DNA of 64,000 bases. Source: Candidatus Iainarchaeum sp. GTDB lineage: Archaea; Iainarchaeota; Iainarchaeia; Iainarchaeales; DTGL01. The translations under genes were made by a program, and so were the position numbers. The DNA lies in the NCBI GenBank assembly GCA_026413945.1, contig JAOAJX010000004.1, forward strand, positions 32,483-96,482, read 5' to 3'. A model generated the notes under the pieces. That model saw nothing but the letters and a program-made list of their open reading frames with translations. It was not told the origin of the DNA and ran no database searches. Below are positions 2,814-36,881 of the stretch, one piece after another. Each line of letters opens with the position of its first letter. Within the stretch, counting starts at the first letter, position 1.

Positions 2814-2944
2814 AATTAGGAATATTTACCTGCAAAATAATAAAATACTTTTTCAGAACTGCTTTTTTAATCTTTGTTAAAGTGGTTCTGTTAACTTAAT
2901 GTTGATGAATTAAACATTAAAATTTTCATTTTATTACCCCCAAT

Positions 2945-3139
2945 TTAGTCAGAATTAACAGCTTGGAATTTGGTTGCTTTTTGTATCATACATTTCCAAT
3001 TCTCAACTTCGATATCCACTCCAGAGATTTTAGCTGGAGTATTACCATTAAGACTTTGATGAGGTCTTAAGAAGTTATAAAAGACAAACCAACCATCAAG
3101 AAATGTTTGGGCTGTTTCTTGTTTTTTCAATCCTCGCAT
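2945..3139 (-). pseudogene. IS transposase remnant (C-terminal tail of an rve/DDE integrase-core transposase)
   Basis: 64-aa ORF containing 'FYNFLRPHQSLNGNTPA', typical of the C-terminus of IS3/IS481-type DDE transposases; no upstream catalytic region is present, so it is a truncated fragment. Confidence 0.5.
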
Positions 3140-3166
3140 CGGTTTAAGCCTGTCCTTAAGTGTTCC

Positions 3167-3319
3167 ATGAAACGAATACTAGTAAGCCTTCCAGATGGGG
3201 CATGGAAATTTATCGAGAAAAAACTAAAGGGCAAACTCGGTGACAAAGAGTCAGAATTAGTTAGAAACATCGTTATCGCTTACTTGTCTGAAAAAGGCTA
3301 TTTTGAAGATGAGAAATAG
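3167..3319 (+). CDS. Ribbon-helix-helix (CopG-like) DNA-binding protein
   Basis: 'MKRILVSLPDGAWKFIEKKLKGKLGDKESELVRNIVIAYLSEKGY' matches the RHH pattern of a beta-strand followed by two helices and a 'SELVR' motif; internal ATG start at 3167 within ORF 3107..3319. Confidence 0.45.
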   Translation: MKRILVSLPDGAWKFIEKKLKGKLGDKESELVRNIVIAYLSEKGYFEDEK

Positions 3320-3497
3320 CATGGTTGACAAAGAGATCAAAGAGGTAAAAGAAGATATAGAAACTCTTGAGAACATGTTCTCTGCCTTAGTACACATTCT
3401 AGAAAAAAAGAAAATACTTTCTGATAAGGAACTTGACGAACAAATAAAGAGAAGAATTGATAAAGATAAGAAATTAAAGAAATTTGAAGATCTTTGA
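3303..3497 (+). CDS. Small charged coiled-coil protein (hypothetical)
   Basis: 64-aa K/E-rich ORF overlapping the RHH gene stop, which suggests an operon partner; no recognisable domain. Confidence 0.25.
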   Translation: MKMRNSMVDKEIKEVKEDIETLENMFSALVHILEKKKILSDKELDEQIKRRIDKDKKLKKFEDL

Positions 3498-3539
3498 TTA
3501 ACTAATTAGTTCTGAGAAGTTTGCGAAGCAAATTTCCCC

Positions 3540-3835
3540 CGAGCCCAATATTTCATGATTAAATTATATATTGGCGAGGGGCGACTGAACGAGCTCTGTA
3601 AGAAGCGAGTGAAGGAGTCAGAACGAGTGTTAGTAGACCGAGTGAGATTGAAGCGTTTAGCAGAATGTCTGAGCGAGGCAAGGAGCTTCGAAGAAGCGAC
3701 GAAGCGTTGCTGGCGATCATTTGGGGCGCCGTGGTTTGCTCCAGTTCAATATAGAAGCAAATCTCGTTTAACCATAGTTCAACGAAATAGCCAGCCTCGC
3801 CTTTTATAGAGACTAAATGAAAGCCACCTCTCACT
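3540..3835. other. G+C-rich non-coding island of unknown function (candidate structured RNA or element boundary)
   Basis: About 290 nt that is visibly GC-richer than its flanks. The 5' 'GGCGAGGGGCG' is complementary to the 3' 'GCCAGCCTCGCC', a CGAGTG motif recurs, and both strands show spurious long ORFs typical of GC-rich RNA genes. Confidence 0.2.
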
Positions 3836-3871
3836 AAAAAGTTAATAAATATTATTAGATTATCTTAACAT

Positions 3872-5671
3872 ATGAAAAAAGCATTTGTCTGGGATCCTGT
3901 GATGAGATCTTCAGCAATAAAATACGATCCTTGTATATTATTAAATGGAAAAATATGTAAAACTAAATGTGATAATTGCAAAATTACTCTTATCGCAGAT
4001 AGGTTTTTAGGTAAAGAATTCCAGCAAGAGATACTTGGAAAAATTGGTGGGAGCAAAGGAAGATACCCGTATGTTATTATCGCCGATAGTTTAGGTTGTA
4101 ATCTGCATTGTTGGTTCTGTTACGCATATAAATTTCTTACAAAAGAAAGTGCAGAAGCAAATAAATGCGACATAGCTTATGTTTCTCCTAAAGAACTTGC
4201 AGAACAATTTGGTTGCAAAATCAGAAAATTAGCAGACTTTCAAGAATTACTCAGAGTTGTTGAATCAAAGAATCTCAACGAACAGGTAAAAAAAGCGGCA
4301 ATTAAACATTTACAGATGAAATTACCTTTAATGAGGATCAGATTATCGGGTGGTGAACCAACATTCTCAACTAAAGATACATTGTTTGAACCTCAAGATG
4401 AAAATCTAATCAAATCTACAGTTATGTATTGGCTCTCTTTTTTTAAAGAATTGGATAAAATTATTGGTCTTTTAAAAAAAGATGGAAAATTAAATATTGC
4501 CAATAAAATGGATGTTAAAAATAAAGAGTGGAAAGGAGATTTACCGTTTCCTACATGTCTTGGAGAAAGAGAAGGAAGATTGAATATAAGATACGACACA
4601 AATGGTATCATATTTGGCAACAAAGAAATTACCAAGATGTTTATCGGTGGACTTTTTAAATTATTCAAACAAAATAAGCTAAATCATATATTCATAGAAT
4701 TTGATTATTCTTTTAAAGGTGCGACACCTGTTGAATACGAATGGTCTCAAAGGAGAGGTTTACCAGTTGACGCTTCAAAAATCTCTTTTGATTATAAATT
4801 AAAAGAACACCCACAAATTCCTGGTTATCTAAATATAATCAAAACTATTACTGAGCATTGCAAAAAAGATGTAGAGTTTAATAATTGTGCGGGTATTACT
4901 GTAGAAAGAGGTATAAACCACAACAAAAGTTTTAAAACATACCTGAATTGCAAAGAATCACTTAATTGGGAAAATTTTTCTAAAAAAAGTAGAATTCGAT
5001 TCTCAGTCGTAGATAATCCGATAGAAATGTTTAATTGGAGAAATTATACGCCTAAAAGCTGTTTTATTAAGAACGGTGCGAGCATCAAGGTAATATCAGG
5101 AGAAGCAGAATTTGATTTGAAAAATTGTCCGGATATGAACAAATTTTCTGAATTTGTCCAGAACCATCCAAATTGTTACTTTGTAATATACCCAGTTGAG
5201 ACCAAAGTTAATCTTCAAAAAATTACAAAAATAGGAAAAATAAAACTTGATTCTTCCCAAACGACATTAATAGACATGCAGTTTTCTGGTTGGGTCTTTT
5301 CTGGTACTAAAGAAAATTGGAAAATTGCATTGGAAAAAAGAAAGTGGGGTGTTAAGGAAAAAAACCGTTCTCTTTGGCAAAAAATAAAACCTGGGGATAT
5401 TGTATTATTTTATGTTACTACCCCTATAAGTCGAATTATGGGTTTTGGAAAAGTTAAAGAAACTTCTGAAGAAAATTCCCTTTTGTGGCCAGATGAAATA
5501 AAAGAGAATAATCTAAAATATCCACTAAGAATAATTTTTGAAGAGATGAAATGTATTGAAGATTGGGAAAATGGTGTAAAACCTTTTGGTTTAGAAATAA
5601 AACACGGCATAAATCAAGTTAACAATTATAAAACATTCGAAAAAATAGTCAATACTTTTAGAAATGAATAA
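3872..5671 (+). CDS. Radical SAM domain protein fused to a C-terminal EVE/PUA-like (modified-base reader) domain
   Basis: CxxxCxxC 'GCNLHCWFCY' at nt 4096-4122, the 'RIRLSGGEPTF' SAM-binding glycine motif, and 'NIRYDTNG'. The C-terminal approximately 130 aa (from ~5279) read 'W..WGV...R..W.KIKPGDIVLFYVT..SRIMGFGKV', an EVE-type signature. Confidence 0.7.
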   Translation: MKKAFVWDPVMRSSAIKYDPCILLNGKICKTKCDNCKITLIADRFLGKEFQQEILGKIGGSKGRYPYVIIADSLGCNLHCWFCYAYKFLTKESAEANKCDIAYVSPKELAEQFGCKIRKLADFQELLRVVESKNLNEQVKKAAIKHLQMKLPLMRIRLSGGEPTFSTKDTLFEPQDENLIKSTVMYWLSFFKELDKIIGLLKKDGKLNIANKMDVKNKEWKGDLPFPTCLGEREGRLNIRYDTNGIIFGNKEITKMFIGGLFKLFKQNKLNHIFIEFDYSFKGATPVEYEWSQRRGLPVDASKISFDYKLKEHPQIPGYLNIIKTITEHCKKDVEFNNCAGITVERGINHNKSFKTYLNCKESLNWENFSKKSRIRFSVVDNPIEMFNWRNYTPKSCFIKNGASIKVISGEAEFDLKNCPDMNKFSEFVQNHPNCYFVIYPVETKVNLQKITKIGKIKLDSSQTTLIDMQFSGWVFSGTKENWKIALEKRKWGVKEKNRSLWQKIKPGDIVLFYVTTPISRIMGFGKVKETSEENSLLWPDEIKENNLKYPLRIIFEEMKCIEDWENGVKPFGLEIKHGINQVNNYKTFEKIVNTFRNE

Positions 5672-5767
5672 ACTCATGGCGGCGGCTTCAATATAAATTA
5701 AATATAGCCAGCAATGTCTACTAACAACTATTAAGTGAAATAAATATTCGCTTTATAGTATGAAGAA

Positions 5768-5791
5768 GTATAAAAAGCGAGATTTTATATA
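5768..5791 (+). promoter_or_regulatory. Candidate archaeal TATA/BRE region upstream of the recombinase gene
   Basis: 'gtataaaaag' and 'ttttatata' A/T boxes lie 35-55 nt upstream of the ATG at 5824. Confidence 0.2.
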
Positions 5792-5795
5792 GTCC

Positions 5796-5817
5796 GTCTC
5801 AATAATGTCTCAATAAT
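5796..5817. repeat. Tandem direct repeat 2 x 11 nt (gtctcaataat) immediately upstream of the recombinase start
   Basis: Perfect duplication seen directly in the sequence at 5796-5806 and 5807-5817. Confidence 0.6.
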
Positions 5818-5823
5818 AAATTT

Positions 5824-6633
5824 ATGACGAACGAGAGCAAGATTTATTCTCCAGAAGAGAGGTATAAACTGATTGGCAAGCTGATTGAAGAAATAAAACT
5901 CAGAAGATATTCTTTTCAAACTGGAAAATCTTATATCTCTATTGCAAAAGACTTTCTGGCGTCAGGAAAGATACCAAGAGAATTTTTGCTGTCTTATACA
6001 AACAAAAGCAAATCTGCAATGAGGTTTGCCTATTTTGCTTTGAAGTTCTTTCACGAGAATATTCTGAATGCTAAATTCGGGGAAAAGTTGCCGCTTGCCA
6101 GAAAATCCATGAAATTGCCGTTAGTTTTAAGCAAAGAGGAGGTAATCAAAATGATTAACGCCACAAATAATTTGAAGCATAAGCTTGTTATTATGTTTCT
6201 CTATTATGCTGGCTTGCGTCTGAATGAGGTAAGAAATCTCAAATGGGAAGAAATTGATTTTGGCAGAGAGATAATACACTTAAAAACTGCAAAAGGAGAT
6301 AAGGAACGAATAGTATTTCTTAATAAAAAACTGACTTATATGCTGAAAATGTATGGAATTAATGAAGAAGGCTTGATTTTTGTTTCTCAAAAATTGGGAA
6401 AATACAACAAGAGGACAATCCAGCAAATTGTCAAATCCTCTTCCAAGAAAGCAGAGATAAAGAAGAAAATTACACCACATACGCTGCGGCACAGCTTTGC
6501 GAATCATCTATTAGAATCTGGCGCCGATATTCGATACATTCAACATCTTTTAGGCCATAAAGATTTGAAAACAACGCAAATCTACACTCACGTTGCGAAT
6601 AAGGACATAAAGAAACTTGCAAATCTGCTTTAG
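5824..6633 (+). CDS. Tyrosine site-specific recombinase (XerA/XerCD-like integrase family)
   Basis: C-terminal 'HTLRHSFANHLLESGADIRYIQHLLGHKDLKTTQIYTHV' carries the R..H..R/H..Y catalytic signature; N-terminal SAM-like core-binding domain. Confidence 0.85.
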   Translation: MTNESKIYSPEERYKLIGKLIEEIKLRRYSFQTGKSYISIAKDFLASGKIPREFLLSYTNKSKSAMRFAYFALKFFHENILNAKFGEKLPLARKSMKLPLVLSKEEVIKMINATNNLKHKLVIMFLYYAGLRLNEVRNLKWEEIDFGREIIHLKTAKGDKERIVFLNKKLTYMLKMYGINEEGLIFVSQKLGKYNKRTIQQIVKSSSKKAEIKKKITPHTLRHSFANHLLESGADIRYIQHLLGHKDLKTTQIYTHVANKDIKKLANLL

Positions 6634-6703
6634 AATTTTAGAAAACATTTACTAAAAACAAATATTGACCAACATTAAGTTAACAGAACCGTTAAAGTCT
6701 AGC

Positions 6704-8248: not shown

Positions 8249-8314
8249 CGAACAAGCCAACTAATTTAAAGATAAAAATAATGGCACAGCAATTAGAGAA
8301 TGCGAATTTAAAAG

Positions 8315-8385
8315 AGCGGGAGGAGGGAGTCGAACCCCCTTAATCCGGTCTGCAGCCGGATGCATGGCCGTTCTGCCACTCCCGC
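8315..8385 (-). tRNA. tRNA-Cys (GCA)
   Basis: Manual fold gives acceptor GCGGGAG/CTCCCGC, anticodon stem TCCGG/CCGGA with loop CTGCAGA, T-arm GGGGG-TTCGACT-CCCTC, and discriminator U73 as expected for Cys. Confidence 0.8.
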
Positions 8386-8422: not shown

Positions 8423-9688
8423 TTAACTTTTTTCATTTTGAATATTGACCTTGCTTTTTTCTTCGCCGAGACTAAGCAGATAGTTTTTTGCACCATCAAT
8501 GTCATCAGCTTCCAACATGCTGAAAAGTTTTCTTGCATCAAATGCGTTATTGAAGTTTGTTTCGCCAAGTTTTTTCTCGAGGAGTTCATAGCCAAACTCC
8601 AGCACTGATTTATTTTTTTCTTGCAATGCAACTAGCTCAGAGAGTTTTTTTGAAAAAGATTGCGCGAAAAAGTCTGAATCTATAGATATTATTGCTTTCT
8701 TGGAATACTCATCCAAAATATCCTTAATATCAATGCTTTCAGGAGTATGGCCTTTTGCCAAAGATCCTGAAAGCTTGATTTTCACAAGTGGCATTTTGCA
8801 GTATTGCTCCGATGTTATCTTACCAAGAACCTCCCGCAGTCGCTTTGCGACAATGTTTTTTTCAGCGTTTTCAAACTCTAATTTTTCATATATAAAAGGC
8901 CTTTGATTTGGCAAATGCAAAAAATCAAGTGCTTTGCTTTTTGTATCCATGATGTATATGCCTTTTGGCTTTTTGGCTTCTAGGCGCTTCATCTGCGTAA
9001 GCATTGTAGAGCCGGTGAGAATTAAATGCTTATTACCCTGCTTTACTTCATTTTGCCAGTGAAGATGCCCATTGACTATGATGTCAAAGCCTTCTGGAAG
9101 TGAGTCAATGGTTAGCGTAGCAATCATTTCATCATCAAATGGCAGAAATTCCTTGAATGATTGATGCAGCACAAGAATGTTAAATGCTTTTGGTTCTGGC
9201 TTTGGGTTCCAGGCGCGGAGCACGTCTAAGGCCTTCTTTTCTGGAACACCGCCAAGCCCATGAATTGCGATGAGTTCTCCATTTTGCTCAAAAAGAGCCC
9301 TTTCACCATGCAGATATGCTATAAACCCAGCTTCTTCAAAAAGCTGCAGATAATTGGCATAATCACGGCTTCTAAACTCATGTGTGCCATGGATTGCAAA
9401 AATTGGAATGCCATTGAGCTTAAGCTCTCGCTCTTTTTCAGAGCTAATTTTCTTTACAATGAGCAAATTTTTGTTGGCATTTTTTGCGATTGAAAAAACT
9501 GAAAAAGCCTGAATTAGATGCAATGACTCTGGAACTTCCTTATCAAATATATCGCCAGCAATAACTATTGCTTGTGCGCCTCTTTCAACAGCCAGCTTCA
9601 TTGCAGCAAAAGCATTCTCAAAAGCCTCGTTTTCGCGCCCCTTCTGGGAAAAGCCAAGATGGAAATCTGACAAAAAAGCAATCTTCAT
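8423..9688 (-). CDS. Calcineurin-like metallophosphoesterase, Mre11/SbcD-like DNA repair nuclease
   Basis: 'MKIAFLSDFHLG', 'GDIFD' and 'IHGTHEF' phosphoesterase motifs plus a C-terminal capping-like domain; start moved to the internal ATG to avoid overlap; no Rad50 adjacent. Confidence 0.55.
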   Translation of the reverse strand: MKIAFLSDFHLGFSQKGRENEAFENAFAAMKLAVERGAQAIVIAGDIFDKEVPESLHLIQAFSVFSIAKNANKNLLIVKKISSEKERELKLNGIPIFAIHGTHEFRSRDYANYLQLFEEAGFIAYLHGERALFEQNGELIAIHGLGGVPEKKALDVLRAWNPKPEPKAFNILVLHQSFKEFLPFDDEMIATLTIDSLPEGFDIIVNGHLHWQNEVKQGNKHLILTGSTMLTQMKRLEAKKPKGIYIMDTKSKALDFLHLPNQRPFIYEKLEFENAEKNIVAKRLREVLGKITSEQYCKMPLVKIKLSGSLAKGHTPESIDIKDILDEYSKKAIISIDSDFFAQSFSKKLSELVALQEKNKSVLEFGYELLEKKLGETNFNNAFDARKLFSMLEADDIDGAKNYLLSLGEEKSKVNIQNEKS

Positions 9689-9713
9689 GAAGTATATGAA
9701 GCTAAATTTTAAT

Positions 9714-10658
9714 TTAAATATATGCTGTATAACCAACTTTTTCGGTTTTGCCCAGCAGAATTTTTTCTAAATTTGCCATACCTGCTTTTGACATCAGCAA
9801 AAGAGGTCTAAAAATCGGAATTTTGATATTTGAATCTAACAAAAATTGCCCACAAAAATTAGTTTTTGAAATTTTTCTTTCTGGGACTACAAGTGCAGAA
9901 ATTCCCTCCTCGTTTATAAGGCAATCAATATCTGCAAAATTAGTTACTTTAAAATTACGCCAAAGATTCCATTGCGATAAAATCTCGAGTGCATTGCCAA
10001 TATTTCCAGCATTAGAGCCAGTAACTGGAAAAACATTGCAGCCTTTGCGCATCATGAGCCAAGCGCAAATAGCGCTCTCAATCTTATTTTTATCGCCCTC
10101 AAACAGAACAGCCACATTACCTTCTACACCTAAAGGTAAACCACCAAAGCATTTTAGCTCATTAAAGTAAAATAAAGCTTTATCATTTTCTATATCTATG
10201 TGAAGCCTATAATCTGGTTTTGAGAGATTAACTTTAAGGCCGTAAGTTTTAACAACATCGGCTCCAACAAAAACTTCAGCATCCTTCGAAGTAAAACTGT
10301 GCTTACCAGAACGTGAGCATTCAATTGCAAAAGTGCCATCTTTTCCAGAAAAAAGATCCCGGGATATTAAGGCTAAGTCTTCAATATCTTGAAAAAAGTA
10401 CTTATGAGCAATTGCAACAGAATAGATCCCAAAAATTTTCTTCAATATTTTAATACAAGTCTCAGATGCATCTGATTGTAAAAGAAGTCTATCGCTTAAA
10501 GTTTGAATATACCTAAAAGCAATTTGATTACGCTTTAGAGCACACCCAACATTGCTGCGTAGCTTCTTTACAAAGTAGCGCCTAGTCGGAGCGCTTTTTA
10601 GGAATATGGAGGGAGAAAATTTAGCCATTATTAGTTGTCCTTCGCTATTGTAAGCCAT
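9714..10658 (-). CDS. THUMP-domain protein, ThiI-like tRNA modification enzyme lacking an obvious PP-loop
   Basis: N-terminal ferredoxin-like/THUMP pattern resembling ThiI; no SGGxDS motif seen in the C-terminal half. Confidence 0.45.
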   Translation of the reverse strand: MAYNSEGQLIMAKFSPSIFLKSAPTRRYFVKKLRSNVGCALKRNQIAFRYIQTLSDRLLLQSDASETCIKILKKIFGIYSVAIAHKYFFQDIEDLALISRDLFSGKDGTFAIECSRSGKHSFTSKDAEVFVGADVVKTYGLKVNLSKPDYRLHIDIENDKALFYFNELKCFGGLPLGVEGNVAVLFEGDKNKIESAICAWLMMRKGCNVFPVTGSNAGNIGNALEILSQWNLWRNFKVTNFADIDCLINEEGISALVVPERKISKTNFCGQFLLDSNIKIPIFRPLLLMSKAGMANLEKILLGKTEKVGYTAYI

Positions 10659-36808: not shown

Positions 36809-36881
36809 TGGGCCCGGAGGGATTCGAACCCCCGATCTGCAGCTTAGAAGGCTGCTGCCTTATCCACTAGGCTACGAGCCC
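36809..36881 (-). tRNA. tRNA-Arg (TCT)
   Basis: Acceptor GGGCTCG/CGGGCCC, D-arm GCCT-AGTGGATA-AGGC, anticodon stem GCAGC/GCTGC with loop CTTCTAA, T-arm GGGGG-TTCGAAT-CCCTC. Confidence 0.8.

Follow-up and report, generated by a model that had tools for sequence, protein, structure and literature searches.

In a 64,000-nucleotide stretch of contig JAOAJX010000004.1 from the archaeon Candidatus Iainarchaeum sp. (the whole stretch is hereafter called the window), we found a gene whose product joins a radical S-adenosylmethionine (SAM) core to a C-terminal EVE domain, and which is referred to here as rSAM-EVE. Judging from the sequence and the predicted structure, it is settled that the core carries intact catalytic motifs, yet fits no named radical SAM family, and that it is coupled to an EVE reader of the UPF0310 type. 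The superfamilies of the protein are known ones, whereas its clade and its domain architecture are new. Likewise settled are the mobility of the rSAM-EVE unit and its genomic company, which consists of nucleases, regulators and mobile-element genes. We propose, with a probability of roughly 45%, that the EVE domain directs the radical SAM core of rSAM-EVE to modified nucleic acid, probably DNA, and that the enzyme acts on it as part of a mobile module for defence or genetic conflict. The gene and the parts of its product are as follows.

3872–5671, plus strand: rSAM-EVE gene, an ATG-to-stop frame of 599 amino acids plus stop, from the list of open reading frames (ORFs) and the translation.
3872–4051, plus strand: N-terminal beta-hairpin module, residues 1–60, from the alignments and the secondary structure of the model; C21, C33 and C36 are conserved.
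4052–4888, plus strand: radical SAM partial barrel, residues ~61–339.
4094–4123, plus strand: GCNLHCWFCY, a CX3CX2C motif (C76, C80, C83), residues 75–84, on which the Pfam Radical_SAM and Fer4_12 matches are centred.
4346–4360, plus strand: SGGEP, residues 159–163, invariant in the alignments.
4589–4606, plus strand: RYDTNG, residues 240–245; the family pattern RxDTNG is invariant.
Within 4052–4888, plus strand: YSxKG, residues 279–283, and the WSQ and HPQ motifs, which also lie in the barrel.
Within 4052–4888, plus strand: two family-specific helical inserts in the barrel, residues 106–148 and 177–203.
4889–5221, plus strand: C-terminal alpha/beta subdomain of the core, residues ~340–450, with an ExGIxH motif; confidently modelled.
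5222–5284, plus strand: linker, residues ~451–471, disordered, basic and variable in sequence; the predicted local distance difference test (pLDDT) score is below 50 at residues 452–469.
5285–5668, plus strand: EVE (PUA-like) domain of the UPF0310 type, residues 472–599; W474, W492, Y514, W539 and E542 are invariant in the fused members.

We judge the predicted ORF to be a real gene, because homologs of 57–71% identity occur in other phyla, and the antisense ORFs inside it (minus strand, 3865–4056, 4393–4668 and 5410–5610) are regarded as shadows of the conserved sense frame. The first ~390 residues are rich in invariant motifs (DRFLG, GCNxxCWFCYA, RxxGGEP, RxDTNG, YSxKG, WSQ, HPQ and ExGIxH), of which DRFLG (residues 43–47) belongs to the N-terminal module. 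The cysteine motif C76-x3-C80-W-F-C83, with an aromatic residue preceding the third cysteine, was invariant across all homologs, including those that lack the EVE domain, and the alignments showed that CX3CX2C, GGEP, RFDTNG, YSxKG, HPQ and ExGI are kept in every homolog. We take GGEP and DTNG to be SAM-binding sites, the downstream motif presumably contacting the ribose and methionine moieties. Many basic or polar residues of the core are conserved as well (R44, K116, R157, R240 and K282).

All peptides quoted in a preliminary description of this DNA, which had been made without database searches, are present in the translation of 3872–5671. That description had placed GCNLHCWFCY at nucleotides 4096–4122; the motif is there, albeit its true span begins two nucleotides earlier and ends one nucleotide later. 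It also proposed an extra N-terminal cysteine cluster. Of the N-terminal cysteines, only C21, C33 and C36 are conserved; neither C29 nor C99 showed conservation in the family alignments. C21, C33 and C36 co-occur with C115 in almost all members, and all four are absent from the subclade represented by two loci, L016 and L024. This joint loss suggests that the four cysteines form one dispensable Cys4 metal site. An RlmN-like catalytic pair of C99 and C115 was also considered and dropped, as C99 proved not to be conserved on wider sampling.

Pfam recognised the C-terminal domain as EVE (PF01878; residues 474–535, 25.2 bits against a gathering score of 23). NCBIfam PRK00809, a UPF0310-like model, matched with an E value of 1.1e-13, yet under its cut-off, and searches of Protein Data Bank (PDB) sequences hit the C-terminal part only, the matches being MJECL36 and PH1033, both of the UPF0310 type, and YTH domains at weaker scores. 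In a profile alignment, W492 and W539 align with the tryptophans of 'IWAVKK' and 'FWSDS' in the YTH domain of Mmi1, which we assume to be aromatic-cage positions. Pfam Radical_SAM (PF04055) remained below threshold in the window protein (16.3 against 29.5 bits). Across the family, it matched 18 of 19 members at E <= 0.1, with a best E value of 2.2e-7, and EVE matched 14 of 19. The core gave only sub-threshold or chance matches against NCBIfam, PADLOC and PDB profiles and reached no known radical SAM subfamily; its profile search of PDB sequences returned no match, QueE and viperin included. We also failed to find a nuclease domain (HNH, PD-(D/E)xK or PLD) in the protein by Pfam, NCBIfam, PADLOC or fold search.

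AlphaFold modelled the full-length protein (pLDDT 88.3) as two domains linked by a disordered stretch, and the core alone with a pLDDT of 87.2 and a predicted template-modelling score of 0.88. Fold searches identified the core model as a radical SAM partial (beta/alpha)6 TIM barrel and the C-terminal model as a PUA-like beta-barrel with an EVE-type helix. The top fold matches of the core were PFL-activase, QueE and viperin, and SPL, RlmN, Cfr, MiaB and TYW1 were also among the matches; predicted viral structures gave no significant fold match. About 260 residues of the core are family-specific, comprising the N-terminal cysteine-containing hairpin module, the two helical inserts and the C-terminal alpha/beta subdomain. 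The linker carries more K+R than D+E in 13 of 15 fused members and equal numbers in the other two. With a radical SAM barrel of intact motifs predicted at the N-terminus and a PUA-like fold at the C-terminus, both halves of the proposed fusion are confirmed. The description had further set apart a middle region of ~130 residues as having no assignable domain. That region (residues ~340–450) indeed found no match in Pfam, NCBIfam or PDB sequences, but it is modelled as a well-folded subdomain, and it is part of the core, because the homologs without an EVE domain retain it.

Among 5.8 billion proteins, a search recovered 19 homologs, including a protein identical to that of the window, from a metagenome-assembled genome (MAG) of Candidatus Diapherotrites, and entries that carry the labels Aenigmatarchaeota and Archaeoglobus neptunius. 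For the ten closest non-identical homologs, identity is 57–71%, and proteins in this range come from Diapherotrites, from Archaeoglobus and from a contig whose marker genes are bacterial. When the core-only profile was run against 1.84 billion representative proteins, 70 proteins were found at E <= 0.001, nearly all of them family members or fragments, and no bridge to another family appeared; the clade is thus isolated from ordinary radical SAM enzymes. The EVE domain alone gave zero matches in a word-indexed protein search. The sole name in any source is 'EVE domain-containing protein', and full-text searches of the literature returned no description of a radical SAM plus EVE architecture, in agreement with the earlier view that the single-chain fusion belongs to no named family. 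A census of EVE proteins lists fusions to nucleases, McrB, GNAT, PIN and others, and radical SAM figures in it only as a B12-dependent neighbour gene in Alteromonadales (Bell et al. 2020, PMC7641849).

We collected 32 loci (designated by L numbers) and mapped both domains with hidden Markov models built from the family alignments. The fusion, whose recurrence had been left as a question by the preliminary description, is found in at least 11 distinct loci, and nucleases are among its neighbours. In L009, the same two parts are encoded by adjacent, overlapping genes (core 652–1986, EVE 1983–2483), and the separate EVE protein shares 38% identity with the fused domain (E 4e-35). In pairwise comparisons of 15 fused proteins, core identity correlates with EVE identity (rho 0.63, p 7e-13), with the EVE domain evolving somewhat faster (mean identity 45% versus 54% for the core). 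Because the fusion recurs, is split into adjacent genes in L009 and shows co-varying identities, we consider it settled, on these sequence comparisons, that the pairing is not accidental and that the two parts are functionally coupled. A second group of homologs, of ~440 residues and 32–37% identity, lacks the EVE domain and keeps all catalytic motifs (L016, L017 and L022–L026). At two further loci, L014 (3174–5007) and L018 (146–1959), core and EVE lie in different overlapping frames, which may stem from a frameshift introduced in sequencing, from decay to a pseudogene or from a true split. The homolog P0006 (L005, 342–2342) has a 63-residue N-terminal extension that is unique among the homologs, and its start codon was probably mis-called.

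The family appears to have crossed between archaea and bacteria, as L002, which is labelled Aenigmatarchaeota, carries DnaN, OmpA and RecA, and L007 is labelled as an uncultured bacterium. L002 corresponds to contig JBDRYZ010000008.1 of GCA_039803725.1, and its DnaN has three beta-clamp domains; the contig looks bacterial, and may be a binning error or belong to a mislabelled MAG.

In the window, the gene lies in a 3.8-kb cassette (2876–6698 including the duplication), composed of a transposase remnant, three small ORFs, the rSAM-EVE gene and a tyrosine recombinase gene.

2876–2883 and 6691–6698, no strand: 8-bp target-site duplication GTTAAAGT, read from the sequence outside each arm.
2884–2910, no strand: left terminal inverted repeat, 27 nucleotides, 25 of 27 complementary to the right arm.
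2945–3139, minus strand: C-terminal remnant of an rve-type (DDE) transposase (Pfam rve_3, 27.3 bits against a cut-off of 26.5), just inside the left repeat.
3107–3319, 3303–3497 and 3555–3809, plus strand: three small ORFs 5' of the rSAM-EVE gene, from the ORF list.
5824–6633, plus strand: tyrosine recombinase of 269 amino acids, the last gene of the cassette (Pfam Phage_integrase, E 6.5e-43).
6664–6690, no strand: right terminal inverted repeat, pairing with the left arm.

The 21-nucleotide core of the repeat is exact, and occurs twice in the window and in none of 100 shuffles. The patch had been described as acquired-looking, with a remnant of an insertion sequence (IS) and a tyrosine recombinase, and the inverted repeats and target-site duplication bear this out. 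The upstream continuation of the transposase remnant is interrupted by stops, and no full-length copy of the IS is present within the window; because the transposase is only a C-terminal stub, the cassette is non-autonomous or internally remodelled. Either the whole block moved as a unit, or insertion of the IS came first and other DNA later took the place of its interior. The guanine-cytosine content of the gene is 30.6%, against 38% for the window. Integrases homologous to the window recombinase adjoin rSAM-EVE homologs in L001 and L007. The three small ORFs found no family match in Pfam, NCBIfam or PADLOC; by eye, ORF 3107–3319, taken from its internal methionine at 3167, reads like a ribbon-helix-helix regulator.

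The neighbourhoods of related loci connect the core family to nucleases. In L009, four genes in one orientation follow one another, with slight overlaps or short gaps between them, namely the core, EVE, an AAA_5 McrB-like protein with an EVE-like N-terminus, and a 459-residue partner, which gave a weak PD-(D/E)xK match and otherwise nothing in Pfam, NCBIfam or PADLOC. In L022, a 328-residue protein with an HNH-like C-terminal half is encoded directly downstream of a core paralog, and its N-terminal half is homologous both to the N-terminus of the McrB-like protein of L009 and to a 238-residue ORF that adjoins the core gene in L019. Given the homology of these N-terminal parts, the core family lies repeatedly beside reader-McrB and reader-HNH proteins, which are architectures of modification-dependent restriction. 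The shared domain, of ~130 residues with the pattern VWG..G..W..L..GD.I.F, occurs at L009 2523–6223 (fused to McrB-like AAA_5), L022 5065–6051 (fused to the HNH-like nuclease) and L019 2417–3133 (fused to neither). Among the seven proteins scored, it matched the family EVE model in L009 only (E 7.5e-9), and is probably a divergent PUA-like reader.

Among the loci without the EVE domain, L016, L025 and L026 carry a gene for a ~100-residue winged helix-turn-helix (wHTH) protein directly upstream of the core gene, and in L016 and L024 the core gene overlaps at its 3' end with an HNH gene. MazG-like genes lie within a few kb in L022 and L026, as also in L010. In L022 (5065–9311), two divergent core paralogs stand head to head with a wHTH gene between them, and MazG-like, AAA_5 and two nSTAND-like genes lie alongside. 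Two recurrent neighbours found no match in Pfam, NCBIfam or PADLOC: (i) a convergent gene of 365–416 residues directly downstream of the core in L017, L023, L025 and L026 (for example L025 8770–10020, minus strand), and (ii) a ~216-residue protein in L016, L025 and L026.

Integrases are found near the fused form in the window, L001, L007, L008 and L020. Its other neighbours include ParE and PemK toxin modules, a GajB-like UvrD-PD-(D/E)xK helicase, PD-(D/E)xK and NucS-like nucleases, a DDE transposase, Fic, an M78 peptidase and AlpA; the toxin-antitoxin modules adjoin in L001 and L008. Nuclease partners are present in some loci only (L009, L016, L022, L024, L010, L015 and L020). L020 looks like an integrated element. 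There, a 119-residue ORF (4898–5257) that is weakly EVE-like (E 3.2e-6 against all locus ORFs) lies directly downstream of the fused gene and is followed by a nuclease of the NucS/PD-(D/E)xK type. A homolog of phage Rep_O comes later in the downstream direction, and the upstream edge of the locus holds an integrase homolog. In L005 (2466–6581, minus strand), a ParB_N protein with an SPL-like radical SAM protein and two unassigned proteins stands beside the rSAM-EVE gene. L015 (1409–3174, plus strand) encodes a homologous ParB_N protein fused to an ASCH (PUA-like) domain. The two ParB_N clusters may represent another DNA-modification or conflict module.

The closest parallel to this organisation is found in type IV restriction enzymes with a PUA-like reader (EVE-HNH VcaM4I; EVE/YTH-McrB with McrC), which are likewise single-gene units in mobile or defence islands. 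rSAM-EVE shares with them a predicted modified-base reader domain, and its core relatives are co-oriented with reader-McrB and reader-HNH genes. It differs in that its enzymatic module is a radical SAM barrel, with neither a nuclease domain nor an obligate nuclease partner. The stand-alone EVE proteins of the UPF0310 type, PH1033 and MJECL36, are the closest relatives of the C-terminal domain in both sequence and structure, but they are single-domain proteins of ~145 residues, whereas the EVE domain is here fused or adjacent to a 450-residue enzyme. Stand-alone archaeal EVE proteins are reported to associate with restriction systems (Bell et al. 2020, PMC7641849). On the side of the core, PFL-activating enzyme, QueE and viperin show only 11–14% identity to it and no significant sequence-level match; they have other neighbours and lack the ~260 family-specific residues and the EVE reader. 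SPL, RlmN/Cfr, MiaB and TYW1 also lack an EVE reader, and no sequence-level relationship to the core was detected; in the alignments, neither the second catalytic cysteine of RlmN/Cfr nor the auxiliary-cluster domains of MiaB and TYW1 are evident in rSAM-EVE. Radical SAM proteins are used in anti-phage defence by pVip, Ophion (OpnA radical SAM protein, PHP and PRTase) and HXS, which have other architectures and partners and no reader domain.

Membership in four known families was considered and rejected. For viperin (pVip), NCBIfam viperin_w_prok scored 8.9 bits against a cut-off of 180, and the PADLOC pVip match (E 6e-4) covered only the stretch from the cluster motif to GGE. QueE membership found neither a sequence match nor a queC/queD/folE context, and glycyl-radical activases (PFL-AE/NrdG) neither a sequence match nor a cognate enzyme conserved nearby. 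The two cysteines and the family sequence of RlmN/Cfr were not found.

If rSAM-EVE is a reader-directed enzyme, the EVE domain, held on its flexible basic linker, would bind a modified base and so dock the protein onto nucleic acid, most likely the DNA of an invader or of the host of the element. The core would bind a [4Fe-4S] cluster through C76, C80 and C83, and SAM through GGEP and DTNG. Cleavage of SAM, as the motifs predict, would yield a 5'-deoxyadenosyl radical that could abstract hydrogen from the bound nucleic acid, either from a flipped-out modified base or from a nearby sugar. The site would be turned into a different state, probably a non-functional or further modified one. Radical SAM enzymes that act directly on nucleic acids are known, namely SPL on DNA and RlmN/Cfr, MiaB and TYW1 on RNA. 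The module would act alone where it is the cargo of transposon or integrase cassettes, and would be wired to modification-dependent nucleases (McrBC-like, reader-HNH) in related loci. We favour DNA over RNA as the target, since nucleases of DNA are the operonic partners and restriction systems are linked to the closest relatives of the EVE domain. In favour of the proposal as a whole are the conserved motifs and barrel fold of the core, the EVE match with its invariant W492 and W539, the coupling of the two parts, the nuclease-rich neighbourhoods and the mobility of the gene.

Several points weigh against this proposal. A radical SAM enzyme spends one SAM and one electron per event, which would be a costly way to restrict DNA, and we know of no radical-based restriction. 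The best fold matches of the core (PFL-activase, QueE and viperin) act on proteins or small molecules, not on polymers; the EVE fold scores alike for YTH/RNA and VcaM4I/DNA readers, and therefore does not separate DNA from RNA. Paralogs without the EVE domain show that the core does not strictly need the reader. The basic linker and the isoelectric point of 9.2 for the whole protein speak for the proposal, but high isoelectric points are common in AT-rich genomes. An all-against-all comparison of neighbours found no universal accessory gene, as only integrases and clade-specific neighbours recur, and the context of L011 is purely housekeeping. The family is absent from 2.9 million viral contigs, 50,697 phage records and 72,556 plasmids, which counts in favour, as it fits a cell-side rather than a virus-side gene, albeit the evidence is weak because archaeal viruses are poorly sampled.

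Two roles of opposite sense could follow from the action of the core on DNA. Many viruses use modified bases to escape ordinary restriction, and it is attractive to speculate that rSAM-EVE is a modification-dependent restriction factor encoded by a single mobile gene, in which the EVE domain finds the escape bases of viruses and the radical core inactivates the DNA by abstracting hydrogen, so that the strand is broken or cross-linked or a base is irreversibly changed. This specific version is unlikely in our estimation. We give similarly low credence to the reverse case, a DNA hypermodification ('M-like') enzyme, whose core adds a base modification, or extends an existing one, in the DNA of the host or element that carries the gene. 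The EVE domain would then read an existing or parental-strand mark, as the SRA reader guides maintenance methylation, and the adjacent HNH and McrBC-like nucleases would be restriction partners or independent systems that the modification evades. The gene order of wHTH, core and HNH in L016 does resemble the controller-modification-restriction layout of restriction-modification systems; the wHTH-core pair recurs in L025 and L026, and the core-HNH pair in L024. Solo modification genes are common cargo of mobile elements, and to our knowledge all nucleic-acid radical SAM enzymes are modifiers or repair enzymes, not destroyers. Nevertheless, the fused form is usually without a nuclease partner, no precursor-pathway genes lie near the loci, and two of the neighbouring nucleases carry modified-base readers, so that they would cut modified rather than unmodified DNA. 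Self-protective modification genes are, moreover, frequent in the viral, phage and plasmid collections from which the family is absent. This absence and the frequent lack of a nuclease partner tilt us slightly towards an effector role over an M-like role.

Other substrates appear less probable. A nucleotide-level enzyme, viperin-like or QueE-like, would act on free nucleotides or bases and turn them into antiviral or modified products, with the EVE domain as a sensor or binding site for a modified nucleotide. The weak PADLOC match to pVip, whose defence is nucleotide-based, points in this direction, as do MazG-like NTP pyrophosphatases in L010, L022 and L026, the conserved R44, K116, R157, R240 and K282, which could hold phosphates, and the precedent of Ophion, a validated radical SAM defence system that works via nucleotides or nucleic-acid interference. 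We nonetheless find this reading doubtful, as the NCBIfam viperin score is far under its cut-off, the PADLOC match is confined to the cluster-to-GGE stretch, the core profile finds neither QueE nor viperin among PDB sequences, neither queC/queD/folE nor kinase genes are neighbours, and a reader tethered by a long disordered linker typically goes with a polymer as the target rather than a small molecule.

An RNA-directed enzyme is more doubtful still. It would modify tRNA or rRNA in the manner of a toxin or a resistance factor, with the EVE domain locating a nucleotide that already bears a modification; the predicted (PIN)-GNAT-EVE toxins and the mobile Cfr methyltransferase would be its parallels. 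Alternatively, it could be a housekeeping tRNA modifier. EVE-toxin fusions against modified RNA have been proposed (PMC7641849), small DNA-binding proteins lie directly upstream in several loci, as in toxin-antitoxin pairs, and toxin-antitoxin modules are near the gene in L001 and L008. An Fe-S enzyme of ~450–600 residues would, however, be unusual as a toxin, the regulators encoded upstream are not shared throughout the family, and the operonic partners are DNA nucleases. As for a housekeeping role, the 70 representatives among 1.84 billion proteins are few, with a patchy, cross-domain distribution. The preliminary description had offered defence, anti-defence and hypermodification next to tRNA/rRNA modification; the first three are still favoured, whereas a housekeeping tRNA/rRNA modifier is disfavoured because the family is rare, patchy across archaea and bacteria, located in mobile cassettes and placed beside nucleases. 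Lastly, the core could be a protein-radical activase (PFL-AE/NrdG-like) or a peptide-modifying enzyme, with the EVE domain only as a scaffold. The fold matches of the core include PFL-activase, yet no sequence-level match to activase families was found and no glycyl-radical enzyme or precursor peptide is conserved nearby; such a role would leave the conserved residues of the putative EVE pocket and the coupling of the two parts unexplained, and is very improbable.

Both modules are well known, and what had been undescribed is their joining in one protein or gene pair, with a core clade that stands apart from every characterised radical SAM family. Should the core act on the nucleic acid read by the EVE domain, radical SAM chemistry would be extended to already modified DNA or RNA in genetic conflicts, as a new way to restrict hypermodified viruses or as a new DNA hypermodification. 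Either outcome would add a new class of effector to the 'reader plus effector' logic of type IV systems and, possibly, a programmable enzyme for modified bases. The genomic company of the gene suggests a so far undescribed tool in the conflict of microbes with viruses and mobile DNA. The proposal is directly testable, as the protein is a single chain and one homolog (P0005) comes from a genome assembly named Archaeoglobus neptunius.

The cassette sits between the alanyl-tRNA synthetase gene and a 198-residue membrane-like ORF. Two tRNA genes were located in the window:

8314–8385, minus strand: tRNA-Cys(GCA).
36809–36881, minus strand: tRNA-Arg(TCT).

The tRNA-Cys gene is 1.6 kb from the cassette and is not its insertion site. 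Further along, a minus-strand gene at 9714–10658 encodes a ThiI-like protein with ferredoxin-like and THUMP domains and a marginal match to the ThiI catalytic domain, and it overlaps the start of a gene for an Mre11-like phosphoesterase (8423–9736, minus strand).

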